Assembly: GCA_050012515.1 (NCBI GenBank)
Contig: JBEKHA010000013.1
Location: forward strand, 1,441-65,440
Length of the DNA stretch: 64,000 nucleotides
Reading direction: 5' to 3'
Origin: Sedimentisphaerales bacterium
GTDB lineage: Bacteria > Planctomycetota > Phycisphaerae > Sedimentisphaerales > Anaerobacaceae
The position numbers and the translations under genes are program-made. Of this stretch, positions 2,941-56,757 are shown piece after piece. Each line of letters begins with the position of its first letter. The stretch's first letter is position 1. The notes beneath the pieces are model-generated. The model saw only the letters and a program-made list of their open reading frames with translations. It did not search any database and was not told the DNA's origin.

Positions 2941-3060
2941 TGCTCACGGAAATCCCTCCGGTTAAGCAACCTATATTCGATCGATTCACCACTTATAACC
3001 GACATTTCCAATATTAAACGCTTGGCTACGCAACGGAGCATATCAATCTTTTATTCCCTC

Positions 3061-8580: not shown

Positions 8581-8946
8581 ACCGCCTTCTGTAAAAATAT
8601 TCATCCCACTCATCAGGCAGCCCAGTAGTATAAAAAATTTCGCCCGATGTTAAGTCCTTCGAACAGCTGTTCTTACAAGCAGCTTATTTCATTGAAATTT
8701 GTCGACTTCCCCTCGGAGAACAGAACACACAGTCTCGGTATCGTATCTCTGGACAGAACCAGGCACCGCTCATCCAGAGAGCTAGTGACCTTCCCCCCAA
8801 AAACTGGTCCATTCCAAATGAGATTAAATTTTTTATAATCTCATTTTTGGAAAGGATTCGGAAATGCAAAAGACCAGGACACAAGTTTTTGTCCGAGATG
8901 TGCTGTGCATTTTCGCCGTATACGGGAGCACTTTTCAGATAGCAAC

Positions 8947-11293: not shown

Positions 11294-11294
11294 C

Positions 11295-12560: not shown

Positions 12561-12620
12561 GTTTGTCTCCTTTCTGTATGTTTTCATTATGTAAGTATTC
12601 ATTTAAACTAAAAAAATATA

Positions 12621-13424: not shown

Positions 13425-13674
13425 ATATTTTCCTTCGGCATCTGTCAACCCTTTTCTTTAATTTTTTTGTGCCGGCTGTTGGGTGTGGGTAAAGTCAGAC
13501 GTATCAACGCCGAATCAGCAGATTAGCATAAATCTTGCGAACTGACGGCAAAAACCGCATTATTGGCGCAAAAACGGCGATATATCAGCTAAATATCGGC
13601 CTAATCAACTTGATATAAGCCCGCATATAGAGCCCATATAGGGGGTAATATTAACCCTTTTATGGAGGCTTATT

Positions 13675-15507: not shown

Positions 15508-15512
15508 CTCAA

Positions 15513-15530
15513 ACGGAGCTTTTCCTCCGT
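15513..15530 (+). terminator. Hairpin downstream of the recombinase gene
   Basis: acggag-cttttc-ctccgt, a perfect 6-bp stem 6 nt after the stop. There is no strong U-tract. Confidence 0.3.
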
Positions 15531-15547
15531 AATCGAGCTTAATAGAA

Positions 15548-15571
15548 AACCTCCGACCTCCGGGTTATGGG
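15548..15571. repeat. 24-bp direct repeat identical to an internal part of tRNA-Met (distal att site)
   Basis: 'aacctccgacctccgggttatggg' is identical to 27378-27401, checked base by base. It overlaps an 8-bp inverted repeat ttatgggg/ccccataa at 15564-15584. Confidence 0.85.
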
Positions 15572-15758
15572 GCGGCTCCCCATAAAACGCCCATATGCGT
15601 CTGGAAATATATTTGCAGCAAGGATTGGTGGCGATGATGATTTCGCCGGGGGTAAAAACTACCTAAACAGAAGGTGAGAGCCAAGTAGGGCTTGCGGATA
15701 GTGCAAATACGGTTGGAAATAAAGCGTTTTTTGCGAGAGACGTGATACTTTAAAGCAA

Positions 15759-18700: not shown

Positions 18701-20486
18701 TCACGGCGTTCTCAAAATCTTCTTGTTGAGGCAAGTCCTTATTTGGATCAGGGATGAAATGTGCAAGATCTTTTCGGCGTTCGGGTGTCAGTTTGCGAAG
18801 AATGGTCAAGAGTCGCGTGAGATGATGAACCTCGAAAGGGCATTCTTTTTCGCTTGGGACTGGATCATCAAGCCAATTGAATAGCGGTTCGTTTTTGAGA
18901 ACAGTTCTTGCGATTTGGGCTGCTGTACCCTGATATGACCCGTTCGCAATGACCTGAGTATGGGTCTCGGATTCACGAATATCACGAATACGCCTTTCCA
19001 ACTGTGCCTTCTCTTGGCGAAGTTCTTTTAATTGAGCACTCATTCTTTCGCACTCACCGTGTCGGATTAGATTTTCTGTGTCCCATTCGTCATGTTTACT
19101 CAAAATGCGTCCAACACTTGCTTCTAGCGATCGCTGCTCATCGATTCCCTGACCGAGCAGATTAACGCATAAAGGTCGAATTTCCTCGGGGAGCAATCCT
19201 TCTAATACATGAAGCGCGCGAGGGGTTTTTGCGGTGACCAATACACGATGATCAGTAGCGAGAAGATGACAAATTAAATTTGCGATTGTGTGTGATTTTC
19301 CGGTACCAGGTGGGCCTTGGACAAGAATTCCGGTCGATTTTCTAAACTTTTCAATGATATGTCGCTGTTCATCATTTGCTGGTTTTGGAAAATATACCTC
19401 CGTGTCAATCATATCGGTTTCGAAATCATCATCCGGTTTATCTTGATGGTCTGCCGTATTCGGTATCTCTGCAAGATCTGCGAATTCCGATGGGATTCTT
19501 CCGCCTTGCTCAATAGATTGTTTCATATTCTTTAATATCTCAGTTAGCCCTCTGATAGATCTCTTACGAAGAATTAAGGCCGGTGCATATTGTACGATGG
19601 GTTTCACTGAGAGTGGTTCGCTTGCAGGTTCAATGACCTCACGGTATTCGCCATCAGGTTTAATCGAATGGACGAGTCCTTTTAAGACAGATTCGATAGA
19701 CGCTTGTTCCCAAGGGTCGTCATGAGTTCCCTGCAAACCTTCTTTGGCTGCGCGTTCCGCACCCGCAGGATGTTCTTCGACATCGAGCATATCAATTTCT
19801 ATGGTAAGTTGGGCGCCTTCTCTGGCCGGATGAATTGTGAAACGGCCGAGAGACGCTTCGAATTCAAGAGTGGCTTTTGCAGTTATTAAATGTCGCCTCA
19901 CATGCTGATTCTGAGGTGTTTGCCAGCATAAAAGCCCGAGACCAACCACAAGCTCATATTCCTCACCTAAACGTTTTTGCTCCTGGTATATTGTAAAAAG
20001 CTGCGAATATACTTTATGAATTGTTTCCCATTTTTTGTATAAATGAGACCAAGGCATCCAATTTCGTTCTATGTAGTTCTGCCATGCGTTAGCAACTTCA
20101 GGATAGTCAGCCAATTTTTCTGTCTTCGTAATGAACGCCAATTCCGAAGAACCTTTTGTCCATGCAGGATTTGGCTCCTGCTTTGTGATCTCATCGTGTA
20201 AAGCGGGAATATCCGTTGTCAGGTGAAGCGACTCTTGTATTACCCAATCACGGCAAACTTTTGGGATAGTTGGCAATTGCGGTTCTTTAGCAGTCTGCAC
20301 CTCTATCCATACATCAGGGTCGTGTTCTTCTTCTGGCCCCCAGAGACGAGTATAGCACCCCTTTTCGTGTGGGATCTCATGTAGCCACAGGACTCGCTCA
20401 TATTCACTGAAGTCCCTTATTATGCGAGATCGCAAATGGGCAATACGTATCAGATATTCAACCAATCTAACAGCTTTTTCGCTCAT
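15759..20486 (-). CDS. 1575-aa SF1 (Upf1/Dna2-like, AAA_11/AAA_12 type) helicase fused to a Vsr/DUF559-like endonuclease and a GreA/GreB C-terminal-like domain
   Basis: Walker A 'GPPGTGKS' (nt 19293-19316, aa 391). Walker B 'VDEASQ' (aa 1070), after a ~650-aa coiled-coil insert. 'FRCMPEI' and 'NVAASRAR' helicase motifs. Nuclease-like 'FIDLVIEG...AVECDGDEFH' (aa ~1372-1455). C-terminal 76 aa include 'TPIARALLGKQVEEQVQAKLPTG', which is GreA-C-like. Confidence 0.85.
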   Translation of the reverse strand: MSEKAVRLVEYLIRIAHLRSRIIRDFSEYERVLWLHEIPHEKGCYTRLWGPEEEHDPDVWIEVQTAKEPQLPTIPKVCRDWVIQESLHLTTDIPALHDEITKQEPNPAWTKGSSELAFITKTEKLADYPEVANAWQNYIERNWMPWSHLYKKWETIHKVYSQLFTIYQEQKRLGEEYELVVGLGLLCWQTPQNQHVRRHLITAKATLEFEASLGRFTIHPAREGAQLTIEIDMLDVEEHPAGAERAAKEGLQGTHDDPWEQASIESVLKGLVHSIKPDGEYREVIEPASEPLSVKPIVQYAPALILRKRSIRGLTEILKNMKQSIEQGGRIPSEFADLAEIPNTADHQDKPDDDFETDMIDTEVYFPKPANDEQRHIIEKFRKSTGILVQGPPGTGKSHTIANLICHLLATDHRVLVTAKTPRALHVLEGLLPEEIRPLCVNLLGQGIDEQRSLEASVGRILSKHDEWDTENLIRHGECERMSAQLKELRQEKAQLERRIRDIRESETHTQVIANGSYQGTAAQIARTVLKNEPLFNWLDDPVPSEKECPFEVHHLTRLLTILRKLTPERRKDLAHFIPDPNKDLPQQEDFENAVRQEQQFCNQIEALAPNSDKIIYDHLSSCKESDVRALLESIKQLNDSVTHLRSNTESWVSRCVQDILSGNHSRWWDLGCLTSESLDLYEERKGLAPIVSPENINRTHLLEDAKILKTHLESGSSLGWAVFRPKVVRQRRYILESVFVNSKQCRTLETIRDLVNNLELEKALQNAWDSWTPYFPENSHPISFQIAELKHRKNLLNQAFELQDFVKQCKEHLALCGNIPEPVWHDDSYLNKMFVSCQRVLALFQKQSVTAKIESWENHLLDLSMRSNAHSVVNKSLQAIRSHDSEELLRAKHDIDKIDKAAQVVRWADLFLKQIKELAPRFAHSLQETPNESVWDSRLPQLSKAWQWAQAKVYLNNYLNKDDLLSIERRVRQVENDIEKRISAIASLRAWSFCFKRMEEVHLRHLEAWQQSIRKLGKGTGKHAPRHRRDAQKHLNECVDVVPAWVMPLHRVWDTVDPKPEMFDTIIVDEASQCGPESLPLFYLGRKIIIVGDDKQISPDAVGIPRDAVYRLMEEFLHDFRFKDSFGVESSLFSHGKLRYGTRRVALREHFRCMPEIIHFSNDLCYSSTPLIPLRQYPPNRLKPLENVFIQKGHRQGSNANVTNRPEAEEIVQRIVDCCNDPQYSSKSMGVVVLQGEQQAKLIESMLLERLGASEMENRRLICGNPYSFQGDERDVMFLSMVAAPNEQIGVMGDADDERRFNVAASRARDQMWLFHSVTRNDLSTKCLRRRLLEFFEETRVQSIAGLDIATLKKTALNANRAIEKPPSPFESWFEVDVALEIAGKGYRVIPQFEVAGKFIDLVIEGHQSRLAVECDGDEFHGADRYEQDMQRQRMLERCKWVFYRVRGSSFYMDPANALAPLWNLLEDRGIMPLSANTLDQPFSDDMWKMSKPEVGSSVVVKVGDTVRYMDLQNPNDILEVSISKGESNPDFGIVNERTPIARALLGKQVEEQVQAKLPTGSICLKVLEIFSTK

Positions 20487-20782
20487 AAATGGCGCTGCCC
20501 AACTAAAACCTCTGCGTTAAGACCTCCTGACATAACAATAAAGATTATCGTCTTTTTTCGCCAATCAGTCAAGAACGATAAGATGATAACGCTGAAGTAT
20601 GGCGTAGGTGCTTATTTTCAATACTGTAAACGGCAAAATTGGCCAGCAAGGTAGGGCAAATCGCAAACCCCCGATTGCGGTCCCATATAGGGTCATAAGT
20701 TTAAGGAATAAAAAGACAAAAGTAAAGCAAAAGTGACATTAAACCGGACATTAATAAAAGCTACATTATTCAGTTTTATATT

Positions 20783-21403
20783 TCATCTATCCGTTAGCCC
20801 CAATTCGATTATGCTATTGACCACCTCTTTGAGCTTGATAGCCTCAACGCATTCGCTATCCTTTGATGGTAAATCTTCCAAAAGGAGCAAGAAGGGACTT
20901 AGCGTTCTTTTATCGATCTTTGCAGGTGCCAGCTTCATTGCCTTGACAAATTTAGTGTTATTGATAATACTAATCCAGCCACTTATCCGCCTTAATTCAG
21001 CTACGACTTCTTCCCCTATAAGAGATTTTAACTGCTCGGGGTCATCTCGTTTCTTAAGTTGCTCAAACTCAATTAGTTCTATATAGGCGGGGATCACTTT
21101 ATTATGCACGGCTGTACACAGCTCTTCTCGAGTCTTGGCTATCGATTGGGAATCGCTCCTGAGTTCATTTATCAGCCTTAGCGCAACCTGTTTAGAACTC
21201 TCCAAGATGTCATTATATGTCGCTCGTTTTATTTGAAGTTTCTCAAGATTTTCACCGGCATATCTGAACGCTTCTTCCTTGAACTTGGCTGTCTCGGCTT
21301 TTAATTTGCCAATCTCGACCTTGACACGCCATTGCTTCCCAAACCAGCCTACAAGCCCCCCTACGCCTACACAAATCGCGTTTAGCCAAAGGAGACCCAT
21401 CAT
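20783..21403 (-). CDS. Hypothetical membrane-anchored coiled-coil protein
   Basis: 206 aa. N-terminal TM 'LLWLNAICVGVGGLVGWF'. The start overlaps the upstream stop (TAATG). Confidence 0.6.
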   Translation of the reverse strand: MMGLLWLNAICVGVGGLVGWFGKQWRVKVEIGKLKAETAKFKEEAFRYAGENLEKLQIKRATYNDILESSKQVALRLINELRSDSQSIAKTREELCTAVHNKVIPAYIELIEFEQLKKRDDPEQLKSLIGEEVVAELRRISGWISIINNTKFVKAMKLAPAKIDKRTLSPFLLLLEDLPSKDSECVEAIKLKEVVNSIIELGLTDR

Positions 21404-21660
21404 TATTTACCTTCTAACTCTCTCTTGAGGTCCTGCATGACCCTGTCGAAATCATCCGATGACGACCTCTTTTCAATAATCTGGCCTTCTGAAAAAGAAG
21501 TAACTATCGAAAGAGCTATGATAATTTTATTATATGGAGTACCGGATGCTTGCTGATAGGACTGGTATAACCTGCTTGCTTCCTGTTCAGTCAGCTTTCT
21601 GCCTGCCAGCTTTTCAGCAGCTTCCCTTAATAATCGCCTGATCTCATACTCACTTGACAT
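21403..21660 (-). CDS. Hypothetical small protein (85 aa)
   Basis: AAGGA RBS 8 nt upstream of the ATG. Translationally coupled to the 206-aa gene. Confidence 0.55.
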   Translation of the reverse strand: MSSEYEIRRLLREAAEKLAGRKLTEQEASRLYQSYQQASGTPYNKIIIALSIVTSFSEGQIIEKRSSSDDFDRVMQDLKRELEGK

Positions 21661-22025
21661 GGCTCAATCCTTTCACAAAATGGTTTTTCTTTGCGTGCTC
21701 CAATACGAACACTACTATCTCTGCCCATAACACAGCATCTTCCAAAAGACCCTCTATGTTGCAGCAATTTCCCGACCCCACAATACCCCAAACCCTGTCT
21801 TTCGTCAATAATCGCTTTGCCCGCAAGGCTGGATTAACCCGGCTTTGCCTTGGGAAAGGCAAAAATGGAACTGTCATGTATCTAAGAGAAGAGGTTGTTG
21901 CCTATGAAAAACAAAGGCTGATTTCGACAAAATAAAAATCAAAGAAATCAGCAAAATCAAAATAAATCAAATATTTCAAAACTGCCCCGGTTTTGTGATC
22001 GCAAGTCCTTTTCCGGGGTAGTTGT

Positions 22026-23012
22026 CTACACAATATTAGATAAATCTGCCAGATATTTCCTCGTGTATCGTTTTGTTTTGGTATGCTCCCAAGTTTTCCT
22101 TATTCCAATTATAGAATTTATTGTTAGAGTCGCCCCAGCTGCGGCCTCTACAGCACAAGCTAAGAGACTCGAAGGGTCCTGGATAAAAAGACTCAATCCT
22201 AAACCAAATTGAATCCCTTCTCCTCCAAGTTGTACAATCTCATCTGAATATTGTTGAAAGATGCTGTCCCTTCTATCTAAGAATCCGCGATCAGCTTTGC
22301 CTTGCTCAAGATCATCAAAATATTTGTCCAACTCGTCGTGAAAAGCATGCAAGCGTTCTTTGAATCCTTTGCAGTTTCTGAATTGAATGATTCGATCTAG
22401 ACTGATTTGATGAAGATTTTTAGGTATTTTTAGCTTTAACAGTCCTTTGGCAATATCAATTTTTTCAGCTAGCTTCTTGTTGGGTCTGCGAGCAATACAT
22501 TCGAGTTCGTAGTACTCTTTGTAATCTGTTATTGGAGGTAATGATTTATCGTCTCCCATGATTTGTGCCAATAGAGACATGTACAAGAACCCCAAAGTAT
22601 TAGGTATAGCAATACCCTCCGAAACATTCCTCCCAAAACTGTTTTCAATACAATATCTTTCAAAATCATAGGAATATTTCTCGCTGTATATAGTACATTT
22701 CTGGTTTGATGGCGCTCTCCAATGGTTAATAAAGTCTGGCTCTTTAATTATCCCTGAATATACCTTGGGTTTTTTCACAACTTCTTCTATAACCCTTATT
22801 GCATCCAATGAAGCTAACCATGCATCCTCAGGCGTCGGATAAAGAGGCTCTAGGAGATCTGTTTCATTAAATACCTTTACATGCTTATCGCTAAGCTCTT
22901 TTTGTGCCGACCATGGGATTATGGGTTTTAGTTTGTCTATATAAAGAAGCGCAAACTTCAGCCAATCATCACTTTGAACTTCAAAACTAGGATAGTATAG
23001 TAATTTTTTCAT
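22026..23012 (-). CDS. Hypothetical 328-aa protein, third gene of the Gabija-like operon
   Basis: Starts 12 nt after the gajB-like stop. N-terminal 'LLYYPSFEVQSDDWLKFALLYIDKL' (I recall a DUF6236-like family; unverified). Hydrophobic C-terminal segment 'GLGLSLFIQDPSSLLACAVEAAAGATLTINSIIGI'. Confidence 0.65.
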   Translation of the reverse strand: MKKLLYYPSFEVQSDDWLKFALLYIDKLKPIIPWSAQKELSDKHVKVFNETDLLEPLYPTPEDAWLASLDAIRVIEEVVKKPKVYSGIIKEPDFINHWRAPSNQKCTIYSEKYSYDFERYCIENSFGRNVSEGIAIPNTLGFLYMSLLAQIMGDDKSLPPITDYKEYYELECIARRPNKKLAEKIDIAKGLLKLKIPKNLHQISLDRIIQFRNCKGFKERLHAFHDELDKYFDDLEQGKADRGFLDRRDSIFQQYSDEIVQLGGEGIQFGLGLSLFIQDPSSLLACAVEAAAGATLTINSIIGIRKTWEHTKTKRYTRKYLADLSNIV

Positions 23013-23024
23013 CTATCGGATCTC

Positions 23025-24998
23025 CTATACTTTAAGAATTAACCAACCATTGCCACTGAAAGCTTTGGGATCAAACCTATCCTTGTGAACTGCGAAACAT
23101 AATAAGTGCGTAGGTCGAGAAAAACCAACATAGACCATTCTCGCGCTTTGTTTTGTCCTATCACTAACCTTATCAGCTATTGTTTGGCCAGCAAACTGTT
23201 CTTTTAACCGTTGAGATTCATAAGATTTCGCATTTTCCCCATTGCCATCTTTATAATAATAGCTTTCCAAATATAGTGTTGCTGTATGTGTTTGGCCTTT
23301 TACAGAATGTACAGTTCCGATCTCAACGGCAATATCAGTCTTTTGACACCGATATATGTTATTTTTGGGTTTGGCATCGCTAGATTTGTCGGATGGTTCC
23401 GATATTGTCAGTGAGCTTTCGTCATTCACGAACTCAAACGATTTTTCTAAATTCCTTCCAAAACAATTCACAAATTGAGGGATAATATTCTTTATGTCAG
23501 AAAAGGCGTGATTAATTTTCTCTGAATAGATATCCCGGCACCAGTGGAAAAGTAGTAATCGAAAATCTTCATAGAAGCCTGTGTGTTCGTCCTTTAAATG
23601 TTTCTGCAAACTACCAATAGAAAAGTATCCGGTTTTGCTTTCAGGATTTTTTACTTGTTCTAAACGTAAAACTTTCAAAAAAGCATTCAAGATACTCTTG
23701 TAAATACTTTCTATGCCGTCTTTTTGTGAACCTTCTTTTTTTGCGAATAGCAGATAGCTTTTAAAGTTAGGATAGTCTGTTTTTGACTTAAAGGCATTTG
23801 TTTCAAAGTCAGGCCAATAATTTTTCAACCCAAATTTCCCGTCCTCACCTTTTCTCCATGCAATAGCTTTGATGGGATATTCGTAGTTCTCCGGGATTTT
23901 CCCACCATCTATATATTTCCTTACCAGTTCACAAAACTTTGGTAAAACATTCGATATTGAATTATCGTCAAAGACAATTACATGAGGAGGTAGGGCATCC
24001 TCTTGTGCATTTCTTCCCACAATCGGCTCACGTGGCATTCCAAATGGCTCAACTATTTTCGCAATCATTGATGATAACCGGCGGCTTCCAGTTATGGGAA
24101 GAACAGTTGCCCTGCTTATCCAAATATCGTCAAGCTTGATATCTCCAGAAAATATGGCCTGATTCTTATCGCCAATTCGCTGGTAAATGGAAGAACTATT
24201 GACATCATTAAAAATTTGTTCGAGTAAATTATACTGATGATAGTCCATATCCTGCATTTCATCGACAAAGGCATACCGAAATCGCTGCTGAAGTAAACGT
24301 TGCAATATGGGGTTTAATTTTATTGCTTTCAATGCCAATACGTAAGCATCATCGTAACATAAGATGCCTTTTTCTCTTAGTGCTTGCTTCATTTCGAGTA
24401 ATGATATGTATGTGTCACTATTTCTGTCTTTCAAAGGAAATCTATAATTGGCAATCACTAATTCATCGTTCTCGTTTAGACGGGATTCGTATAGAACGTC
24501 TCCTTTCTGGTAAGGATGATTGTCCAGCCATGCATAAGCTTTAGCAGGAATGTAAATATTCTCATTGTAACTCTCGTCATCAATTCGCCATGGTCTTTTA
24601 CCATACTTCTGCGTGTAATGCGGAATAGCCAAGAAAATATCAGCAAAGGTTTGAATAGTTCCAACAAAGTTCGGATATGCAAAGAGCTTAGGACAGTATT
24701 GGCCGATTCTCTTTTTTATTTCGTTAACCGCAGCATTAGTATGGGAGATTACAAGAATCCCCGAACCTTCTTCGAATGGTAAATGCCTTTCTAGTATTAG
24801 AAGTTTTGCAAGAAGAACGGTTGTCTTGCCGCTTCCCGGAACTGCTTGTAAGTCAATTGTTTCCAAATTTTTTATAAAGGCCTTGCGTTCATTGCGATCA
24901 TCGTCAAATGCTCCCCCCTTACCGAACAGGATCATTTCTGCGTGGGCAATGTCATTATCATTTATTTCTATCTTAGGCCGTGACATATTTAATAGCAT
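23025..24998 (-). CDS. gajB: UvrD/PcrA-like SF1 helicase (GajB-like)
   Basis: 'AVPGSGKTT' Walker A. 'FVDEMQD' Walker B. C-terminal 'TVHSVKGQTHTA'. Overlaps the end of the OLD-nuclease gene. An alternative ATG exists at 24986. Confidence 0.8.
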   Translation of the reverse strand: MLLNMSRPKIEINDNDIAHAEMILFGKGGAFDDDRNERKAFIKNLETIDLQAVPGSGKTTVLLAKLLILERHLPFEEGSGILVISHTNAAVNEIKKRIGQYCPKLFAYPNFVGTIQTFADIFLAIPHYTQKYGKRPWRIDDESYNENIYIPAKAYAWLDNHPYQKGDVLYESRLNENDELVIANYRFPLKDRNSDTYISLLEMKQALREKGILCYDDAYVLALKAIKLNPILQRLLQQRFRYAFVDEMQDMDYHQYNLLEQIFNDVNSSSIYQRIGDKNQAIFSGDIKLDDIWISRATVLPITGSRRLSSMIAKIVEPFGMPREPIVGRNAQEDALPPHVIVFDDNSISNVLPKFCELVRKYIDGGKIPENYEYPIKAIAWRKGEDGKFGLKNYWPDFETNAFKSKTDYPNFKSYLLFAKKEGSQKDGIESIYKSILNAFLKVLRLEQVKNPESKTGYFSIGSLQKHLKDEHTGFYEDFRLLLFHWCRDIYSEKINHAFSDIKNIIPQFVNCFGRNLEKSFEFVNDESSLTISEPSDKSSDAKPKNNIYRCQKTDIAVEIGTVHSVKGQTHTATLYLESYYYKDGNGENAKSYESQRLKEQFAGQTIADKVSDRTKQSARMVYVGFSRPTHLLCFAVHKDRFDPKAFSGNGWLILKV

Positions 24999-26796
24999 CG
25001 ATGAGATATTTTATTGCCTGATCATTTTCATCAATCGCTATAGCTGCTATATCTTGCTCAATTATCTGAGCTAATTTGTAGGCTATTTCGGTTTTGTCCA
25101 GAGTTCTCTTTATCAGCTTATCTGACAGACCTTGTTCAAAAGTGCAGTCTTCAATAATATTGGGGTGAACTATTCTAACAACTGATTCAAATGCAGCTGA
25201 CAGAGAGCTCGACTTACTGATACAGTATTCTAATGTCCAATGAGGAGAGGGAAATGTTTTCACTTTCTGTCCATTGTATTTGGCCTTTATTTCCGCTGTT
25301 TTAATCTCCTTTTGTGTCTTCCCGTTCGATGTAATATTCTCATCTTCCGGCTTCACGTCCAGATCCGTTATCACTGCGATAGGGACATTCATTTCTTGCC
25401 CATCTTTTCGCCGGAATATCTTTGCATATCGCAAAAAGGCCATGTTGCCGACATTGATGATGGAAACCCCCTTCTGCGTCAAATCTATGCCGACTTTCTT
25501 TGCCAGAACCGGCAAGAGCAACTCCTCAGACCATCCCTCAACGAGAATAACTCCTTTGGCAAAAAAGAGATTTGCCTTTGTTACATCAAGGAATCTTTCA
25601 AGAAATACATAATCATCGTCTTCCAGTTCAGTAAGCTTCTTCCTCATCGGAAAGGCCCGCTTGTCATGACAAATGATAAGATTATCCAACTCGACCTTTG
25701 ATGCAAGATTAGGACTGTGAGTAGTCAGTATGATTTGAACACCCTTGTTCTGCTTTATAAATTCCTCAAAAAACTCAATAACTCGTAATTGGGCCTGAGG
25801 ATGAAGATGCGCTTCAAGTTCTTCGATTAATGCGAGTCGCAATCCTGTCCAGTTCTGTCTTTTTAGATTTAATAGTTCAGCAGCAATAAAAAGTAGATTC
25901 TGACTTCCAAGGCCAAGCTTATCATCGCTCAAGGAAAGTTTGAACTGTTCGAGAATATTTTTTAGTTCCCTGTCTATAACATCAAAGTCTGCCTGATATT
26001 GTTCTTCTTCAAAAAATTGCTTAATCATATCCTGCAAATCTGCTCGAATACTTTCTCCTTCGTTTTTGTTTCCTGAACCCTTATCTTTAGGATTTTCCTT
26101 TGTCACAGGATAAAATCTATCTTGGTATGGACATGGAGTTTCAGTGCAATCTTTGGGTTTGTAATCCTTTTTAAAGTATTTCTTGAACAGGCAATTCCAA
26201 CAGCGAGCCAATAATGTTAATGTATGCCCTTTTTCTTTACCCTTGAAGGCATGATGTCCGGAAAGAATTTGAGACAGGCGGGAATTTCTTTTGGGAACAA
26301 GTTCCGATTTCGCATCCCGAAGAGGTTTTAAGTATGTCGTCCTTAAATAATCACGTGCTTCCGCTGTAAACAAAGCCCCATCATCGTCCGCTCCAGCCCG
26401 GACGTCATAATGCAATCGCTCGTTTCCCTTCTTGCTGGCATCCAAGATAACTTTAAGATATGGCTTTGCAGCTTCTCCCATACCTTCCATTCCCAGCCAT
26501 TCGATAAAGTGCATAGCCTCGTTGTCAGACAATTCATCAAAACGACACTCGATCCTTAATCTCTCTGTATTGTTGTGGAAGTCATCGGCAATCAACCTTA
26601 CCCACTCGCTGCTATGTGTATCCAGCACAAACTTAATAGCATCGATGATTGCTGTCTTACCTGAATCGTTAGCTCCTATCAGGACATTAAGCCCTTTAGT
26701 AAAAGACACAATAAGATCAGGTTTTGTTAAATCTAGTTTGCTATTTCCTGAACCAAATTTCCTAAAGTTCCACAATTTAATGTTTGAGAGGTACAT
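24973..26796 (-). CDS. gajA: OLD-family ATPase/Toprim endonuclease (GajA-like)
   Basis: 'IKLWNFRKF...LIGANDSGKTAIIDAI' ABC-ATPase N-terminus. 'LALIEELEAHLHP' Walker B / D-loop. Toprim 'ILVEGWSEE'. The first ATG is at 26796; the track uses a TTG at 26805. Confidence 0.85.
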   Translation of the reverse strand: MYLSNIKLWNFRKFGSGNSKLDLTKPDLIVSFTKGLNVLIGANDSGKTAIIDAIKFVLDTHSSEWVRLIADDFHNNTERLRIECRFDELSDNEAMHFIEWLGMEGMGEAAKPYLKVILDASKKGNERLHYDVRAGADDDGALFTAEARDYLRTTYLKPLRDAKSELVPKRNSRLSQILSGHHAFKGKEKGHTLTLLARCWNCLFKKYFKKDYKPKDCTETPCPYQDRFYPVTKENPKDKGSGNKNEGESIRADLQDMIKQFFEEEQYQADFDVIDRELKNILEQFKLSLSDDKLGLGSQNLLFIAAELLNLKRQNWTGLRLALIEELEAHLHPQAQLRVIEFFEEFIKQNKGVQIILTTHSPNLASKVELDNLIICHDKRAFPMRKKLTELEDDDYVFLERFLDVTKANLFFAKGVILVEGWSEELLLPVLAKKVGIDLTQKGVSIINVGNMAFLRYAKIFRRKDGQEMNVPIAVITDLDVKPEDENITSNGKTQKEIKTAEIKAKYNGQKVKTFPSPHWTLEYCISKSSSLSAAFESVVRIVHPNIIEDCTFEQGLSDKLIKRTLDKTEIAYKLAQIIEQDIAAIAIDENDQAIKYLIDAIKYVTA

Positions 26797-26855
26797 AATA
26801 ATCAAAGCTCACATTATCTTGTTCTCTTATCATTAATACTTCCGTATCTAGCTAT

Positions 26856-27152
26856 TTAAGCTGTGTTCTTGAGTATTTGCTTTACACAAAATTCCACACA
26901 ATCCGTCATTGTTTCTGGTACCAAAGCCGCATGGTGTCTTCTACAAATCTCCGGTGAATTTCCCATTAACGCAGATATCTTATACAATGATTCACCTTTC
27001 ATTGCAAGTTGACTTCCAAAAGTGTGTCTGTAATCCAAGCAATTCCACTGCAAACTTGCTTTTTCATTAGCGTTTCTTAGATCACTGCTAAAATTATCTA
27101 GATCATACCTCTTGCCCTGAGGCGATGGGAAAAACCACTTCCCCGTAACGGG
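26856..27152 (-). pseudogene. Truncated tyrosine recombinase (integrase) C-terminal fragment
   Basis: The frame is open only from 27152. Box II-like 'YRHTFGSQLAMKG...ALMGNSPEICRRHHAAL' is present. The N-terminal ~250 aa are missing. A His sits where the catalytic Tyr is expected. Confidence 0.75.
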
Positions 27153-27370
27153 TTAAAATCCGAGACAAAACGAAAAGAGATAACTCCCTTTGAGCAGGAA
27201 GTTATCTCTTTAAACCAATAGCGGGGGATGTCTTCGTATCACCGACTTGTTAAAATGGGCAAGGTCGGAGGTTCGTAACGGGTGAAAAGCAAGATTTCAA
27301 AAAAAGAGATAACTCTTTGGTAAACAAGATGTTACAAAAAAGTTATCTCTGCAAACCACTAGCGGGGGGA
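27144..27370. repeat. Two degenerate tandem copies of the tRNA 3-prime end, its terminator hairpin and the island junction (att scars)
   Basis: Unit 1 (27144-27228) and unit 2 (27274-27370) share 'cgtaacgggtKaaaaKc...aagagataact..gttatctct..aaaccaMtagcggggg'. An inverted T-arm fragment 'ggtcggaggttcg' lies at ~27263-27275. Confidence 0.7.
27299..27350 (-). terminator. Rho-independent terminator of tRNA-Met
   Basis: 9-bp stem agagataac/gttatctct with a long loop, followed by a U-tract on the minus-sense transcript. Confidence 0.55.
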
Positions 27371-47385: not shown

Positions 47386-50300
47386 CTACTTAATGCCCAG
47401 GGCTTCCTTCATCTTGGCTTCCTTCTGGGCTTCCGCCGCCTTGCCTTCTTCAATTTCACTCACTTCTTTGAATTCCTTGGGCAACGGCGCCTCGGCAAGG
47501 TGTTTAACCTTCAATTCCAGATATGGCTTAAACGCCGTGCCTGCCGGTATCAAATGCCCAAGTATCACGTTCTCTTTCAAACCGGCGAGTTTGTCTATGT
47601 TACCACCTAACGCCGCTTCGGTCAATATCTTTGTCGTCTGCTGGAAGCTGGCTGCGGCGATAAAGCTGTCCGAACGCAGCGATGCCTTGGTAATACCCAA
47701 AAGCAGCGTCTTGGCTGTTGCCATTTTCGGTTTTTTGCCCTTCGCCGGCTCGCCGCCGATTAATTCAACCTTTTCGTTGATGGTCGCCAGCTTGGCCTTA
47801 TCTATGACCTGACCTTCTTTAAGCTCATGCGCCTCGCCCGCGCTGGCTATCTTGATGCTTTCATTGAGCCGCGTGTTTTCCCTGCGGAACTCAAATTTGT
47901 CAACCACTTCGCCAGGTAAAAACTCGCTGTCGCCCACCGACTCAATCTCAATCTTTCGCATCATCTGTGAACATATAATCTCGATATGCTTGTCGTTGAT
48001 ATTGACGTTCTGCGAACGATAAACGTTCTGAATTTCGCCAATCAAATATCTCTGCAGCGACTCTTCGCCCTTAATCCGCAGAATATCATGCGGAACCAGC
48101 GGGCCGTCGGTCAGCGTGTCGCCTGCCTCGACCATATCGCCCGTGTGAACATTCAAATGCCTGTCACGCGGCACGTGGTGTTCCTTTTCCATACCGGATT
48201 CGGAACGAATAATAATCGTCATCTTGCCCTTGCGCTTGTCGCTCTTGAGCTCAACGCGTCCGCTGATTTCCGCTATGGCCGCCGGGTCTTTGGGCTTGCG
48301 TGCCTCGAATACTTCCGTAACTCGCGGCAAACCGCCCGTGATATCCTGCGTTCCGCCCGTGGCTCTGGGCTGATGAGCAAGCAGCTGGCCCGCCTGGACC
48401 TGCTGGCCTTCCGTAACCTCTATTCGGGCGCCCGCGGGCAGATAGTGAACGTCAAGAATCTTGCCTTGGGCATCCTCAATCATAATCTGCGGGTGCTTAT
48501 CACCCTTGTGCTCGATTATGACCGGCTTATTGCCCAGCTGGCCTTTGCGCTCCTCTTCAAGCCGAATCGTCTCGCCTTCGATAATATCCACAAAGCGGAT
48601 TAAACCCGAAACCTCCGCCAATATCGGCGTGCGGTGCGGGTCCCACTCAAACAGCAGCGCCCCGCTTTTTACCTCTTCATTATTTTTCACTCTGACAATC
48701 GCGCCGTAAGGAACCTTGAACTTGTCAAGCTCGCGGTCCTTGTCATCCAGGATAGCAATCTCACCGTTACGCTTCAGGGCAACCGCCCTCGTACTGCCGT
48801 CCTCAGCAGTAAACACTACCGCGTTTAAATCGCGATAAAGTATTTTGCCCGGCTGAGTCGCTCTCTGCTCACGCTCCAGAATGGCACGAGAGGCAATACC
48901 GCCGGTGTGGAACGTTCGCAGTGTCAACTGTGTGCCCGGCTCGCCGATTGACTGGGCGGCTATAATCCCAACGGGCAGGCCTTCTTCAACAAGCTGCCCA
49001 GTGCTCATATCCCAGCCGTAACACTTCGCGCACATCCCGAACGGACTGTCGCACGTCAGCGGACTTCTGACCCTGATTGCGTCAAGCCCAAGCGCCTCAA
49101 TCTTCACGGCCGCGTCAGGCGTTATGACCTCATTTTCCCGGACAATCATCTCATCGGTAATCGGGTTGCGGATGTTGTCCCTTGCGGTCCTGCCGATAAT
49201 AAGCTGCGTCAAAGGCACATCAACCTGCTCGCCCCTGGCGACTGTGCTCTTGGTAATACCCTGCAGCGTCCCGCAATCCCTCTCGGTAATTATCATATTC
49301 TGAGCAACATCTATAAGTTTGCGGGTAAGATAACCCGAGTTGGCTGTCTTCAACGCCGTATCCGCAAGACCTTTTCTGGCGCCGTGCGTCGAGCTGAAAT
49401 ACTCGAGAACCGTCAATCCCTCGCGGAAGTTCGACTTAATCGGTGTCTCGATAATCTCGCCGCTGGGTTTGGCCATCAACGCTCGCATACCGGCAAGCTG
49501 CTGAATCTGGTCAACGCTGCCTCTCGCGCCGGAGATACTCATCATATAAATCGGGTTCAGATATTCTCTGATATTTAACCTTGGCACAGATCTTTCCGGA
49601 TATGCATATGCACGCATTAAATTATTTTTAATAATTTTCCAATCGATCTGATTGAATTGTTCATCTAACTCTGGGAAAAAAGTAAATTCTAAATTCTTTT
49701 TTATATAATCAATCGCACTAATATCATCCAACTTTTCAATTTTTTTAACAGCTTTATAAAGGCTATTATCTTTATTCTGAACAGTGTCTTTAATGCGATC
49801 CCAGCCACGATTGGTATATCCAATCCACTCTACTTTTTCGCTTTCTTTATTCCGGAAAACGATTATGCCTGGCTTGGAAGTTTCACTTCCACGAGACACA
49901 CTCGGATCGGAATACCATTTTGTGCCTGCTTCAATTGCCTTTCGGCATCTTTCAACGAATTGATCAGCTTTCTCGTTTTTAGATCTTACATTGTCAATAT
50001 CGTCTTCGTAATCTTCCTTGAGACCCTTCATCATTTCGCTCGTTACCGCGACACGAGAATTAGTCCAGGCATCAATAACCTGGTTGTACCGCTCGCCCTC
50101 GGTCAATACGCCGGCCTGATAGTTCTTCAGCACTTTCTTAACACGTTTTTCAGTCTCTTCGATGATGATTTCTTTTTTGTCCGGAATCTTCAAATCCATT
50201 ATGCCGAAGCTCAGCCCCGACAAGGTCGCATGCCTGAATCCTTTTTCTTTAATCTTGTCCAACAAATCAACCGTCGCCGCACTGCCGGCAATCGCGTAAC

Positions 50301-52122
50301 AATCGCTGATTACCTGGCTCAACGGCTTCTGTCCCATCGTCCCATTGTAGAATGGCATCTTCGCAGGCAAAATATCGTTGAAAATACACCTGCCGGCTGT
50401 CGTCTCAACCACGATTGGCTTTGAAATCTCCTTACTCTTTAAATCTCTCGCCTTTTCGCCTTCCTTAATCACCGGCTTGGTAATCCGGACCTTAATTTTG
50501 GCGTGCAGGGCAATCTTGCCCATATCACAAGCAAGCATCGCCTCGAACGTATCACGGAACGCCATCCCTTCGCCCTTCTGGCCCGAAAGCATACTGGTCA
50601 GATAGTAATTGCCCAGCACCATATCCTGAGAAGGCCCGACCATCGGCGAACCGTTGGCAGGCGAGAAAATATTGTTCGTGGTCATCATCAGCGTATGGGC
50701 TTCGGTTTGTGCCTCGACGCTCAACGGCAGATGCACCGCCATCTGGTCGCCGTCGAAGTCCGCGTTGAACCCTTTGCAGGCCAGCGGATGCAGCATAATC
50801 GCGTTGCCTTCCACCAGCACCGGCTCAAACGCCTGAACACCCATCCTGTGCAGCGTCGGCGCACGGTTCAGCAGCACGGGGTGCTCGTGAATCACTTCTT
50901 CGAGAATATCCCATATCTGCTCGCCGCGGCGCTCAATCATTTTCTTGGCGCTCTTAATTGTGTCCGCAAGCCCGCTTTGTTTGAGCCGGCGGATAATAAA
51001 CGGCTGATACAATTCCAGCGCAATTCTCTTCGGCAGCCCGCACTGGTGCAATCTCATCGTCGGCCCTATTACAATAACCGAACGCGCCGAATAATCTACT
51101 CGCTTGCCAAGCAGGTTTTCCCTGAATCGTCCCTGCTTGCCTTTTATCATATCGCTCAAGCTCTTCAACGGCCTGTTGTTGCTCCCCAGCACCGGCCTTC
51201 TGCACCTGCCGTTGTCCATAAGAGAATCGACCGCCTGCTGAAGCATTCGCTTTTCGTTGCGAATAATAACTTCAGGAGCGTTGAGGTCCATTAGTTTTTT
51301 CAACCGGTTGTTACGGTTGATTATACGCCTGTAAAGGTCGTTCAAATCGCTCGTCGCGAAATTGCCGCTTTCAAGCAGCACCAGCGGACGCAAATCGGGC
51401 GGTATGACCGGAATCACCTCAAGAACCATCCACTCCGATTTATTATTGCTGTTCTTTATCGCGTCGATTGTCTTGAGACGCTTGCTAAGGTCTTTCATTC
51501 GCTGAACCGAGCTTGTCTTGCTTATCGCTGTTCGCAGCTCAGTGCTGATGCCGTCCAAATCAAGCCGGGTAAGCAGGGTTTTTATCGCCTCGCCGCCCAT
51601 CGCAACCTTGAAACTGCTGCCGTACTTGGTGGTGGCGTCGCGGCATTCCTCTTCCGAAAGCAGTTGCCCGAGTTTGAGCGGGCTTGGGCCGGGGTCGGTA
51701 ACCAGGTAATCCTGGTAATAGATTACCTTCTCAAGGTCCATTCCCTTCATTCCAAGAACCGTCCCCAGCTGATTCGGAACTGCCTTGAAAAACCATATAT
51801 GAACGCACGGAGAGGCAAGATTGATATGCCCCATTCTCTTGCGGCGAACCCTGCTGTGCGTAACCTTCACCCCGCAGCGGTCACAGATGATACCTTTATA
51901 TTTCGTCCCTTTATACTTGCCGCATGCGCATTCCCAGTCCCGCTCCGGTCCGAATATACGTTCGCAGAAAAGACCATCCTTCTCAGGCCTGTACGTTCGG
52001 TAATTGATTGTTTCGGGCTTGCGAACCTCGCCGAACGACCAGCTGCGAATATCATTGGGACCGGCAAGCGAAATCTTGACCGAACCGTAATCATTTATCC
52101 GATCATAGATATTGCTTATCAT
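47386..52122 (-). CDS. rpoC: DNA-directed RNA polymerase subunit beta-prime (1578 aa)
   Basis: Zn finger 'CECGKYKG..C..CGV'. 'NADFDGDQM' active site. Bridge helix. Trigger loop with an SI3-like insert. One additional low-GC insert, described separately. Confidence 0.97.
49561..50020 (-). other. Low-GC in-frame insertion (~135-150 aa) in rpoC, directly after the secondary-channel rim helices
   Basis: It lies between '[11 protein letters not shown]...SEMMKGL' and '[15 protein letters not shown]', where E. coli has only ~24 aa. The DNA is visibly AT-rich compared with flanking rpoC. Confidence 0.75.
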
Positions 52123-52191: not shown

Positions 52192-55100
52192 TTACAAAGT
52201 TGCTGTTCCGCCCAGCCGTTTCTTTTCGAGCTGGATATTCAGACCCAGCCCTCTTATTTCATTGCAAAGCACATCAAACGACAGCGGCGTCCCGGCTTCG
52301 AGCGTATTTTGCCCCTTTACCATCGACTCGTATATCTTGGTGCGGCCTTCGACATCGTCGCTCTTGACCGTAAGCATTTCCTGCAGTGTATAAGCTGCGC
52401 CGTAACCTTCCAGCGCCCACACTTCCATTTCGCCGAACCTCTGTCCGCCGGTCCTCGCCTTGCCGCCCAATGGCTGCTGCGTTATCAAGCTGTAAGGCCC
52501 CGTCGAACGAGCGTGAATCTTGTCGTCAACCAGATGATGCAGTTTCATAATATAGATAAACCCAATCGTCGCCTGCTGGTCGAACGGTTCCCCCGTCCGC
52601 CCGTCATACAATTGCGTCTTCAGTGACTTGGGAACCTGCACAAAAAGCTCATCATCCGCGGGGGCCTGGTCCGCTTTCTCAAGCTCAATCTTTCGACGAG
52701 CCATCAATCTGTTGGCCTCCTCGGTCAGGTCCCTGATGTCCTGCTCCTTGGCGCCGTCGAATACAGGCGTAACTGCCGTAAAGCCCAATACCTTTGCCAC
52801 CCAGCCCAGATGCGTCTCAAGAATCTGGCCGACGTTCATTCTGCTCGGCACACCCAGCGGGTTGAGCAGTATGTCAATCGGCGTGCCATCCTCAAGGAAC
52901 GGCATATCTTCCTGCGGCAACACCTTCGCGATAACGCCTTTGTTGCCGTGGCGACCCGCAATTTTGTCTCCAATCGACATAATCCGTTTGGTCGCGACAT
53001 ATATTTTGACCATTTCGATAACGCCGCTGGGAAGCTCATCGCCGTGTTTCAGCCGTTCGACTCGCTTTTTGGCTTCCTCATCGAGCGCTTTTATTTTCTC
53101 AATAAACTTATCCGCCAGCTTCTCGACCTTTTCCCGCATCGTGGCCGGCTTTACCCATTTTACATCCCAGTTGGTAACCTGCTCGTAAACAACCTCGTCA
53201 TCTTCGCTGATGCCGGCCTTTTGTCTGCTGGACGGGTCAACAATATCGACCTCGAATTTCTCATGAATCGCGGTCACCATCTGCCTGAATATCACGCACT
53301 GCTGTGACCGTATACCTTTTTCAATTTCTCTTATCTGGGCGTTAAGCGCCTTTTTGCCCTCTTCGCCGCCTGCCCCTCGCCGCACAAAACGCTCGGTTTT
53401 AATGACGACGCCTTCGTAACCGTTGGGCAGCTCAAGCGAATCATTCTTAACGTCTTCGCCGGCCCTGCCGAATATCGCATGCAGCAGTTTTTCTTCCGGT
53501 GTAAGCTCGGTCTTGCCCTTCGGCACAACCTTGCCCACCAGGATATCGCCCGGCTGAACTCTCGTGCCCTCCTGAACCACGCCGTGCTCGTCAAGATTAC
53601 GCAGCGCTTTTTCGCTTACGTTTGGTATATCGTTGGTGAATTCTTCCTTGCCCAGCGGCGTCTCGCGTATCTCGGCGTCAAATTCATTGATATGAATACT
53701 TGTGAAACTGTCATTCCTGACTAATCGCTCGCTGACAATGATGGCATCCTCGAAGTTGAATCCTTCGTATGACATAAACGCGCAAAGCACGTTCCTGCCC
53801 AGTGCAAGCACACCGTTTTCAGTGCCGCCGCCGTCGGCCAGCGTCTGGTCTTTCTCAACCCTTTGTCCAAGTTTGACAATCGGCCTCTGGTTAAGACACG
53901 TCCGCTCATTCAAGCCGAAGTATTTCTCCAGCTTGTATTCATCCGTATGATTAATTACAACCTTAGTGGCATCAACCGCGGTAACTGTCCCCGCCTTTTG
54001 CGCCCGCACAACCATACTCGAATACCGCCCCGCCATCTCTTCCATACCCGTCTGAACAAGCGGCGCCTGGCACTTCAACAACGGCACCGCCTGGCGCTGC
54101 ATGTTTGAACCCATCAGCGCCCTGTTCGCGTCGTCATGCTCGAGGAACGGTATCAGCGCAGCCGACAAACCCACAATCTGCTTGGGCGAAACATCGACGT
54201 AGTTCACCTCGTCGTGTCCTACCTGTGCAAGCTCGCCCTGCTGTCGTGCCAGCACCATGCCTTCCGGTATCCTGTTTGTTTCCGGGTCAACCGCGCTTGG
54301 CGGAGCAAATATCGCTTTCATTTCCTCATCCGCCCGCAGGAACGCGACGCTTCCCGTAACTTTGCCCTTGTCAACCTTGTAATAAGGCGACAGCAGGAAT
54401 CCGTATTCGTCAACCGTGGCGAATATCGCCAGCGAGCTGATAAGACCAATGTTTGTGCCTTCCGGCGTTTCTACCGGGCAAATCCTGCCGTAGTGACTGA
54501 TATGAACGTCGCGAACCTCAAAGCCCGCGCGTCTTCTGTTCAAACCGCCCGGCCCAAGCGCCGACAAACGTCTTTCGTGTGTCAACTGGCTAAGCGAATT
54601 GGTCTGGTCAACTATCTGGCTCAGCTCGCCTCGTCCGAAGAAAAAGTTTATGCTGCTCGATACGCTCTTCGAGTTGACAAGGTCCGCTATCCGCAATGGC
54701 TGCTCGCCTTCCTTCATCGTGCTCATTCGTTCCTGCACGGTCTTGCGAAGCTTTAAAAGCCCCTTGCGAATTTCGCCGCCCGCCAGCTCATCAATTGTTC
54801 TCAGCCGACGGTTGCCCAGATGGTCGATATCGTCAACCTCGCCCTCGTTGTTACGCAGCCCGATTATATATTTCACCGCGTTGATGAAATCCTCGGCCCG
54901 CAGCGTCATTTCCGTAAGGGCAACGCTTTGCCCGAATTTACGATTCAGCCGGAACCTGCCCACTTTGCCTAACCGGTACCGGTTGACATCAAAGAATTTC
55001 TCATCGAAAAATTGTTTGGCCTTTTCCTGGTTGGCAGGATTGCCGGGCCGCAACCTGACGTAAAACTTCAATAACGCCTGCTCATGATTCTTGCAGTCGT

Positions 55101-56757
55101 CTTCCGCAAGCGTATTGAACACCAGCGCATCACACGACCCTTCGACTACCTCGATACGCTTTAACTCGCCTTGCTGATCCTTCTGGGTTCTAGGGTATTC
55201 TAGGCCAATTTTCTTATAATATTTTTCTGGTTCTTCGTCCTGGAGTTGTCGCCCTATATCCCATAAAGGAGCATCCAATTCCCCTGGATATTCGGGATTC
55301 AGTTTAGCTGCGATTTCTTGGACACTTTTTCTGTCAATTTCTGTAAGTTCTCTGCCCGCAAGACATCTCTCTCTAAGCTTTATCTCTGAAACAAAGCCGT
55401 ATTTTGCCATTGACCTTGCAACATGTCTATCCACAGCCACAGGAATATTTTCTGGATCTTTAAAAGGACCTGCTGTGAACTCGAATGATTTAGAATTCCT
55501 ATGAAGAATATTAACCAAGAGGGGGGCTATCTTATGTTCACCCACATAATCGATATCAGCGAGGGCAGCAATTACGTCCTTCGCACTTCTGCCTGCCCAA
55601 AAGGATACAACGTCACCATTAAAATCATCTACAACTTTCTTACAGAAGTCTTTTATTGCTTTCGCCGCACCTCCTGAAGCCAAACCACTGATGAGTCCTT
55701 TTATTTCTTCAATGGTACGCTCCTTAATATCTGAAACTTCAAGGCTTCCAAAAGAATCTTTCATCTTTTTCGGCACAGAAAATGAATCTTTAGCCTCAAT
55801 CGGTCGCATACAAAAGACTGCTATGACAAGAGCGAGAGGGTTTGTTCTAACCAACTTAAGATCTGCCTTATCATCTACTTCAAAAAAGTCGGGAAGCTTC
55901 TTGCCATATCTCAAGAGAGCATTTACGACGCTACTTTTGGGTACTCTTTCTTCTGTCACACCAGAAATATTGGCTTGCTGAATAATCGAAACCTTGTCGC
56001 CGATTTGCGCGCCCGCTTTTACGATGATTTCGCCGCTTTCGGTATCGACGATATCTCGCACCACCCACATATCAGGCGAAAGCTTGTTCTTCTGCACCTC
56101 TTTGGTTTCGTAAAACCGCCTGATTATCTGTTCGGTCTCGCTGAAATCGGCGCTTAATGCACGCAGGAAAATCGTCGCGGGAATCTTGCTCGACTGGTCG
56201 ATTTTCACAACCAGAACGTCTTTGTGTGTAACGCTGATTTCTATCCAGCTTCCGCGTTCCGGGATAATTCTGCCCCCGTGAAGTATGCGGTCGCCTTCTT
56301 TGCTCTCTACGAGGAAATCAACGCCGGGACTTCTGTGAAGCTGGCTTACGATAACCCTTTCGGCCCCGTTGATAATGAACTCACCGCCGCCAATCATGAC
56401 GGGTATTTCGCCGAGATATATCGCCTGTTCGGCTATGTCCTGTCCGTCCTTGTTGCGAAGCCGGCAGGTAATCTTCAGCGGATAACCGTACGTCAGGCGA
56501 AGCTGCCTGCATTCGTTTATGCTGTACCTCGGCTGCTCAAGCTCATAGTAAAGGTACTCAAGGATTATCCCTTTGTCGTAGCTCTCTATCGGGAAGGTTT
56601 CCCGAAACAGCTCTTCCAGACCCCTGTTGGCGCGCTTTGTCGGCTGCGCGTCCATTTGCAGAAACTCTCCGTAGCCCTTCCTCTGCACGACAACAAGGTC
56701 AGGGATTTCGACTTTCTCCCGCATTTTGCCGAAATTACGAACTTTCAATTCAGCCAT
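52192..56757 (-). CDS. rpoB: DNA-directed RNA polymerase subunit beta (1521 aa)
   Basis: Canonical conserved regions: '[15 protein letters not shown]', 'GRHGNKGV', '[13 protein letters not shown]', '[14 protein letters not shown]'. One low-GC insert, described separately. Confidence 0.97.
55165..55965 (-). other. Low-GC in-frame insertion (~265 aa) in rpoB with HhH-GPD (EndoIII-like) motif landmarks
   Basis: It lies between 'IIQQANISG' and 'LKRIEVVEG'. HhH '[17 protein letters not shown]' (nt 55501-55560). '[12 protein letters not shown]' loop. '[10 protein letters not shown]' (nt 55381-55440). Confidence 0.6.

Follow-up and report, generated by a model that had tools for sequence, protein, structure and literature searches.

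The RNA polymerase (RNAP) operon of a Sedimentisphaerales bacterium (assembly GCA_050012515.1) lies on contig JBEKHA010000013.1, in a stretch of 64,000 nucleotides (nt) that was analysed as a whole and is referred to here as the window (contig positions 1,441 to 65,440). The operon runs on the minus strand of the window in the canonical order L10-L7/L12-rpoB-rpoC-S12-S7-fusA. The subject of this study is a run of 145 codons inside rpoC, immediately behind the codons for the rim helices of the secondary channel, together with a larger insert in rpoB. Two relatives serve as the reference throughout, and neither carries either insert: L077, an ENA contig and the best comparator (96.4-97.7% nt identity across the operon), and L001, a Sedimentisphaerales contig at 95% nt identity. 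The features on which the argument depends are the following, in window coordinates, with protein positions in amino acids (aa).

47386-52122, minus strand: rpoC, the gene for beta-prime, 1578 aa, assigned from its open reading frame (ORF) translation, Pfam Rpb1 domains 1-5 and synteny with relatives.
49567-50001, minus strand: the RpoC insert, 145 codons (RpoC aa 708-852, ending in PRLNIRE), delimited by DNA and protein alignment to L001 and L077.
50002-50265, minus strand: the hyper-diverged 5' flank of that insert, 264 nt (RpoC aa 620-707), covering the rim helices up to the insertion point.
52192-56757, minus strand: rpoB, the gene for beta, 1521 aa, host gene of the partner insert.
55168-55971, minus strand: the rpoB insert, 268 codons (RpoB aa 263-530), a clean gain of 268 aa relative to L001 and L077.

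The boundaries of the RpoC insert are sharply defined. Its 145 codons stand where relatives have three (GSA), which in the DNA alignment to L001 lengthens the gene by 426 nt net and the protein by 142 aa. Around the junctions L001 reads KEDKKDD-GSA-YLNP; the window reads KEDYEDD, then the 145 aa that begin with IDNVRS and end with LNIRE, then YLNP. When RpoC residues 575-974 were compared with solved bacterial beta-prime chains, residues ~705-852 remained unaligned: the alignment to the E. coli and Francisella subunits reaches ~704 and restarts at ~853, at the block (F/L)N(S/P)IYMM...SGARGS. The insert site is the gap between the equivalents of E. coli beta-prime 704 and 719, just past the rim helices, in a surface loop connecting the second of them with the conserved IYMM block, and the element has the form of an RNAP sequence insertion, with 145 aa between the rim-helix and IYMMxxSGARGS blocks and both flanks alignable. 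Without the insert, rpoC is 95.2% identical to that of L001 at the nucleotide level, with a synonymous divergence (dS) of 0.20 and a ratio of nonsynonymous to synonymous divergence (dN/dS) of 0.05, and RpoC also carries a Si3-like insertion in the trigger loop (SBHM-type Pfam matches, aa 1216-1343). RpoB without its insert has 97.6% aa identity with the 1253-aa RpoB of L001.

The composition of the RpoC insert sets it apart from its host gene. Its GC content is 0.34, and at third codon positions (GC3) it falls to 0.29, against 0.64-0.65 in both halves of the rpoC core; because the shift is found at synonymous sites, amino-acid composition does not explain the AT-richness. The host frame contains no stop codon whereas the other two frames contain 8 and 20, and none of 20,000 composition-matched shuffles kept the frame open. 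The RpoC insert behaves as a coding sequence of AT-rich origin. A preliminary description of the same DNA, made from its letters without database searches, had placed an in-frame, compositionally foreign insertion right after the rim helices, and alignment, GC3 and open frame all agree with it; its coordinates and its account of the insertion hold in the alignment to L001, and the strings it quoted were all found in the window's proteins. Its figure of ~160 aa fits the whole linker, which measures about 152 aa, and overstates the actual insert of 145 aa.

Since an AT-rich segment in a conserved operon invites the suspicion of an assembly or binning artefact, in which AT-rich reads of another organism were joined chimerically into rpoBC, the contigs themselves deserve attention. 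The data come from metagenomes, breaks in rpoB or rpoC are frequent in the contigs of relatives (one contig, described below, starts inside its rpoB insert), and the insert-bearing contigs may not be independent. Against this, the exact 1578-aa RpoC is found on 2 contigs, one of them JGI 3300040758 Ga0439235_0000065 (221,884 bp), and the exact 1521-aa RpoB on 3. The length of both inserts is exactly divisible by three, they read through without a stop in the frame of the host gene and are bounded on either side by collinear host sequence, and the keeping of frame in two genes is a strong argument against chimeric assembly; in addition, a homologous rpoB insert occupies the same site in an unrelated metagenome-assembled genome (MAG). 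An artefact is thus barely credible.

The RpoC insert appears to be confined to a very small part of the clade. A search with the whole RpoC places the organism in Sedimentisphaerales (Planctomycetota). The closest RpoC proteins among the matches listed are 93-98% identical to that of the window and 1434-1436 aa long, about 142 aa shorter. Among the Sedimentisphaerales/Planctomycetota RpoC hits with an extractable GERYN...IYMM linker (n=74, window protein included), the linker is exactly 35 aa in 72, and the window protein alone has 177 aa. Another Sedimentisphaerales-like RpoC, P0062 (L078:2660-7042, JGI 3300032053), carries in the same loop an unrelated addition of 22 aa, PACVKCEPYLVMSQDDKKKAATWQMRDTKYE, which contains a CxxC motif and has a host-typical GC3 (0.58 vs 0.56). 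Since two unrelated additions fall at the identical point, this loop is a permissive insertion point. The insert itself was seen only in the window's own protein and was not found clade-wide, in searches where contig collections were scanned with exact 8-residue peptides (their sensitivity is low below about 70% identity, so that an RpoC at ~60% identity could be missed) and protein databases were searched as cluster representatives. A widespread, GC-typical insertion in relatives, which the preliminary description had named as the finding that would undo its claim, is not what the insert-free L001 and L077 present.

Such a distribution brings up the most serious competing explanation, namely that the insert is a neutral or slightly deleterious passenger: foreign coding DNA that entered a permissive loop by illegitimate recombination, does no harm and plays no role in transcription. 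The presence of the insert in one genome lineage only is what a passenger would be expected to show, as are its orphan sequence, its partly disordered structure prediction (see below) and the tolerance of the loop for the unrelated indel of P0062; its unameliorated composition would suit an insertion of very recent date. Elsewhere in the ~25-kb syntenic block, in contrast, the genes have products equal or nearly equal in length to those of relatives, so that large indels are peculiar to the two RNAP subunits. That two neutral accidents should have struck the two largest subunits independently, each at a wall of one and the same pocket, is unlikely.

The partner insert in rpoB sharpens this point. 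It shares the AT-richness of the RpoC insert, as had been claimed from the letters alone (GC3 of 0.33, against 0.64 for the rest of rpoB). It lies within the part of the beta lobe that aligns to Si1, its flanks corresponding to Pseudomonas beta ~295 and ~342. The two inserts show no similarity to each other. For the rpoB insert a free-standing homologue was found, the 245-aa protein P0146 (29% identity over 85% of the insert, E 3.8e-11), and MAGs of Chloroflexota, Lentimicrobiaceae and Vicinamibacteria contain other free-standing relatives; all end in a C-x6-C-x2-C-x5-C iron-sulphur (Fe-S) loop, the place of which is taken in the RpoB copy by an unrelated acidic tail. A profile of the four-sequence family (A3) matches endonuclease III (1orn) with an E-value of 1.2e-8 over profile positions 34-243, which is nearly its whole length, and the insert falls within the HhH-GPD/endonuclease III superfamily, with its HhH and VDRHV motifs kept, although its single-sequence Pfam HhH-GPD score of 22.7 bits is under the cut-off of 26.2. 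To judge from these profile matches, the rpoB insert is a captured endonuclease-III/HhH-GPD-like domain that has lost its Fe-S cluster loop. The P0146 locus (L006:6820-7557, JGI 3300032053) is situated among defence-like genes, including HATPase_c_3, radical SAM, PDDEXK_3, an AbiEii fragment and a nucleotidyltransferase; the RpoC insert has no similarity to the neighbours of P0146.

The rpoB insert is also present in a second lineage. L080 (CAYMYK010000252.1, GTDB MAG 'uncultured Pirellulales', 3-3098) has a homologous insert at the same RpoB site, 61% identical over its last 43 residues, the contig beginning inside the insert; the RpoB core behind it is roughly 80% identical to that of the window, as read from the translation. 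The contig ends at RpoC residue ~290, short of the RpoC insert site, and a look-up by exact sequence recovered no further RpoC of this lineage. At least two planctomycete lineages therefore have the rpoB insert, and the distance between them greatly exceeds that between the window and its insert-free relatives, which is better explained by horizontal movement within rpoB than by vertical descent with massive loss. That a more diverged second lineage has kept the insert at this very site is not readily reconciled with a passenger. The preliminary description had spoken of two foreign, frame-preserving modules in both large subunits, and these are indeed found; their acquisition, seen in one genome, may or may not have been coordinated.

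How the RpoC insert may have arrived is indicated by its surroundings. The 264 nt upstream differ by 13-22% from L001 as well as from L077, where most of the operon differs by 1-5%. In these 88 codons there are 22 synonymous and 10 non-synonymous codon differences, where the gene-wide figures are about 12% and 2.4% of codons, and aa 620-707 reach no more than 90% identity to any of 120 relatives whereas neighbouring 100-aa blocks reach 98-100%. The GC3 of this tract is host-like (0.61). On the 3' side of the insert, divergence is ordinary from the first base. At the rpoB junction five substitutions lie in the 15-30 nt after the insert (SEIKK to GELKR) and none in the left flank. When rpoB and rpoC are compared along their length with L001 and L077, a mosaic is seen in which blocks of 7-11% divergence alternate with blocks of 0-2%, and it is the 13-22% block that abuts the RpoC insert. 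The amino-acid changes in the flank are concentrated where rim helix 1 begins and where rim helix 2 ends; these two ends would meet at the base of the antiparallel coiled coil, beside the insertion point.

These data suggest that the 264-nt flank was imported together with the insert from an unsampled, related donor, and allele import would explain why the rim-helix tract 5' of the insert is hyper-diverged but normal in GC. In the simplest reading, recombination tracts would have brought in both inserts from a related unsampled donor that already had them in its rpoB and rpoC; local alleles would later have recombined with the imported ones and shortened the flanks of donor origin, as one would expect if selection acted on the insert itself. 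Alternatively, the RpoC insert might have arrived by illegitimate recombination, followed by local adaptation: accelerated change of the residues that pack against the new domain could account for the flank in place of its import, and both may hold. The concentration of substitutions near both junctions does not favour a passenger, and with the other points raised above it leads us to regard a purely neutral origin as unlikely.

Attempts to identify the RpoC insert through its relatives gave none that could be upheld. No match was found in Pfam, PHROGs, PADLOC or the PDB sequences, the sole entry being Trep_dent_lipo (E 0.0015, 18 bits against a cut-off of 25.3); a word-indexed search of 5.8 billion proteins gave no homologue, tblastn against phages and plasmids gave no match, and scans of metagenome, GTDB-genome and viral contigs gave no match by exact 8-mer peptides, a method by which homologues at ~60% identity would probably be missed. 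A HMMER search of 1.84 billion representatives returned two proteins. The first, P0145, consists of 97-aa repeats; it seemed a plausible match by eye and was rejected because the repeats inflate its E-value (the hhalign probability is only 6%); the second, an ankyrin protein, is noise. A Gre/DksA-type factor was likewise rejected, as no GreA_GreB, GreA_GreB_N or zf-dskA_traR Pfam match appeared at E up to 10.

The precise in-frame entry of AT-rich DNA into highly conserved genes would also be compatible with a selfish mobile element of the homing-endonuclease, intein, miniature inverted-repeat transposable element (MITE) or Rickettsia palindromic element (RPE) kind, either retained in the protein or spliced out. 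The lead in this direction was a GII-x10-WIG motif, resembling GIY-YIG by eye, together with low-probability Foldseek matches to phage GIY-YIG and intron-associated endonucleases. By eye, both tyrosine positions and the histidine of GIY-YIG are replaced in the insert; BLASTP to I-TevI found nothing; and a profile built from 13 phage GIY-YIG domains scores 0.7 bits, which 629 of 2000 shuffles equalled or bettered. As an intein the insert lacks the proper termini, since it starts with Ile (Tyr if the boundary is shifted), ends in NIRE and is followed by Tyr, and no Hint or intein Pfam match was obtained. A self-splicing intron is countered by the open frame and by Rfam, which at E up to 1 gives only two noise-level snoRNA matches. 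A MITE/RPE-like element finds no terminal inverted repeats or target-site duplication (flanking repeats do not exceed microhomologies of 4-8 nt), and no second copy exists in the 64-kb window or in 0.75 Mb of related loci. With the lack of Pfam, PHROG and PADLOC matches and of any relation between the two inserts, the selfish element is already largely refuted and must be considered very improbable.

In a single-sequence AlphaFold2 model of the RpoC insert, an N-terminal helix is joined through a disordered stretch of ~20 residues to a beta-hairpin, after which come three helices, one strand and a last helix at the C-terminus (predicted local distance difference test, pLDDT, 64; predicted template modelling score, pTM, 0.54). 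At this pLDDT of only 64 the model describes a mixed helix/strand domain rather than a beta-sandwich as in SBHM/BBM2 inserts. Foldseek found no significant structural neighbour of the model in PDB or BFVD, in keeping with the preliminary description, which had recognised no fold. For now, the RpoC insert is best described by its model as a predicted orphan alpha/beta domain.

The position of the insert provides the principal indication of what it might do. TraR and its homologues from phages make contact with the rim helices where the secondary channel opens, Si3 and Si1, and RNAP without Si1 is unresponsive to TraR (PMC9239242). It is through Si1 and Si3 that DksA and TraR exert their effect at the secondary channel (PMC9239242; bioRxiv 10.64898/2026.02.09.704077). 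The preliminary description had located the RpoC insert where Gre/DksA-type factors dock, and this is borne out: the site borders the surface used by DksA, TraR and Gre, while the rpoB insert sits in the Si1 region, another wall of the same pocket. We propose that the RpoC insert came very recently from foreign AT-rich DNA by recombination and that it forms a small alpha/beta domain of its own, attached through a helix and a disordered linker. Together the two modules would decorate two of the three walls of the pocket (rim helices, Si1 and Si3). The pocket so reshaped would be the one used by Gre/DksA/TraR-type factors and by phage and plasmid proteins that hijack RNAP, and the most likely effect would be altered docking of such factors, through the exclusion of hostile ones or the recruitment of a new partner. 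The endonuclease-III-like module may provide a further contact with DNA close to the downstream duplex. The two inserts might also touch each other or occlude the channel.

Taken as a whole, the account in which the RpoC insert is a translated surface module, acquired by recent introgression and altering the site where secondary-channel factors dock, seems to us moderately probable. Its parts differ in strength: the structural and evolutionary part, taken alone, is very probably correct, while the functional part, taken alone, is tentative and rather doubtful. Several points weigh against the account. The function is deduced solely from position, and translation of the insert and its incorporation into RNAP solely from the open frame of the sequence. 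Its orphan status provides neither conservation nor dN/dS nor a fold assignment, and the structure model is of only moderate confidence (the pLDDT of 64 given above). One genome alone carries the insert, so that a neutral or mildly deleterious passenger of a single population is possible; the 2 and 3 insert-bearing contigs may not be independent assemblies; and the divergence of the flank could reflect accelerated evolution instead of import.

Elsewhere in the window, next to the ribosomal-protein cluster, lies a mobile or defence island that contains one protein relevant to the docking pocket. Its features are as follows.

~8900-27200: the mobile or defence island, of which ~12.5-27.2 kb is low in GC (~0.38-0.42).
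8947-10680: terminase-like gene.
11295-12602: ParB_N plus N6/N4 DNA methylase.
13675-15507: large serine recombinase.
15759-20486, minus strand: helicase-nuclease of 1575 aa, with a superfamily 1 (SF1) helicase (AAA_11/AAA_12), an MTES_1575 restriction-endonuclease-like domain and a GreA/GreB C-terminal domain.
23025-24998: GajB of a complete Gabija system (E down to 1e-223 for Gabija).
24973-26805: GajA of the same complete Gabija system (E down to 1e-223 for Gabija).

The Gabija genes have a GC3 of 0.33-0.39, similar to that of the RpoC insert (0.29). The helicase-nuclease matches the PADLOC candidate PDC-S37 and Mokosh MkoA/MkoC, and its C-terminal PF01272 domain scores 36 bits against a cut-off of 26.9. 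Among its 56 metagenomic relatives (~53% identity), all but about 4 stop short of the Gre-type domain. In Gre factors it is the C-terminal domain that attaches to the beta-prime rim helices, beside the RpoC insert. One metagenome, JGI 3300032053, yielded P0146, P0062 and a relative of the Gre-domain helicase (L067).

A broader proposal can be built on these observations, according to which RNAP accessory domains spread horizontally: foreign ORFs would be captured in frame at the walls of the secondary-channel pocket, moved between related genomes by recombination within rpoB and rpoC, and selected by phage or plasmid proteins that hijack RNAP or by defence proteins that dock on it. The Gre-domain helicase-nuclease, ~30 kb away, would be a candidate for a defence protein of this type. 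We consider this proposal speculative and on balance quite unlikely; if it were true, the inserts would represent the 'armour' of an arms race, or a built-in factor, on the core enzyme of transcription. The findings also raise the possibility that the entrance of the secondary channel is a battleground shaped by mobile elements.

RNAP inserts are usually viewed as ancient, clade-defining features of obscure origin, while here two of them are seen near their acquisition. Both still have the composition of a foreign source, and one can be traced to a free-standing endonuclease-III-like family. Given that insert-free alleles exist at 96-98% identity, the origin and selective value of RNAP insertions become open to experiment, by comparing the enzyme with and without each module. 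An endonuclease-III-like DNA-binding domain in the beta lobe would be a new kind of RNAP accessory domain.

Several known systems invite comparison. Closest are the lineage-specific insertions of bacterial RNAP, which were reportedly catalogued by Lane and Darst in 2010; those with names include Si1 and Si2 of E. coli beta, Si3 of E. coli beta-prime and the non-conserved domain of Thermus beta-prime. Known RNAP inserts are old, shared across whole clades and native in composition, and SBHM/BBM2 repeats make up many of them. The inserts described here resemble them in being surface-exposed extra modules, predicted to fold independently, placed in frame between conserved segments, and the rpoB partner even lies in the Si1 region. 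The RpoC insert differs from them in that it is present in one lineage only and absent at 96-98% nt identity, has a foreign GC3 and is a predicted orphan alpha/beta domain; nor do the solved beta-prime chains that were compared residue by residue contain a comparable insert at the equivalent of E. coli 704-719.

A second comparison is with the secondary-channel factors. The RpoC insert resembles GreA/GreB, DksA, TraR, Gfh1, Rnk and the arm of HelD in being located at the surface formed by the rim helices and the entrance of the secondary channel, where the Gre-like arm of HelD is reported to act (PMC7749165). These factors are proteins in their own right, and their coiled coil reaches into the channel, whereas the RpoC insert is a covalent part of beta-prime, shows neither a coiled-coil nor a Gre/DksA signature in Pfam and is not predicted to reach the active site.

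Inteins and Rickettsia palindromic elements also insert into essential, conserved genes without disturbing the frame, and are compositionally distinct from the host gene. The RpoC insert is like them in both respects; unlike them, its 435 nt lack splicing motifs as well as palindromic or repeated ends and do not recur among the loci compared, and it is predicted to be a folded domain. As for the rpoB insert, to be compared with the endonuclease III/MutY HhH-GPD glycosylases, its family profile matches endonuclease III over about 190 residues and keeps the HhH motif and the VDxH(V/I)xR motif with its aspartate, but it is embedded in RpoB, has an acidic tail for the Fe-S loop and is glycosylase-like by its letters alone. 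This operon combines a strain-level, compositionally foreign and apparently introgressed insert in beta-prime with a captured domain of putative DNA-glycosylase fold in beta.

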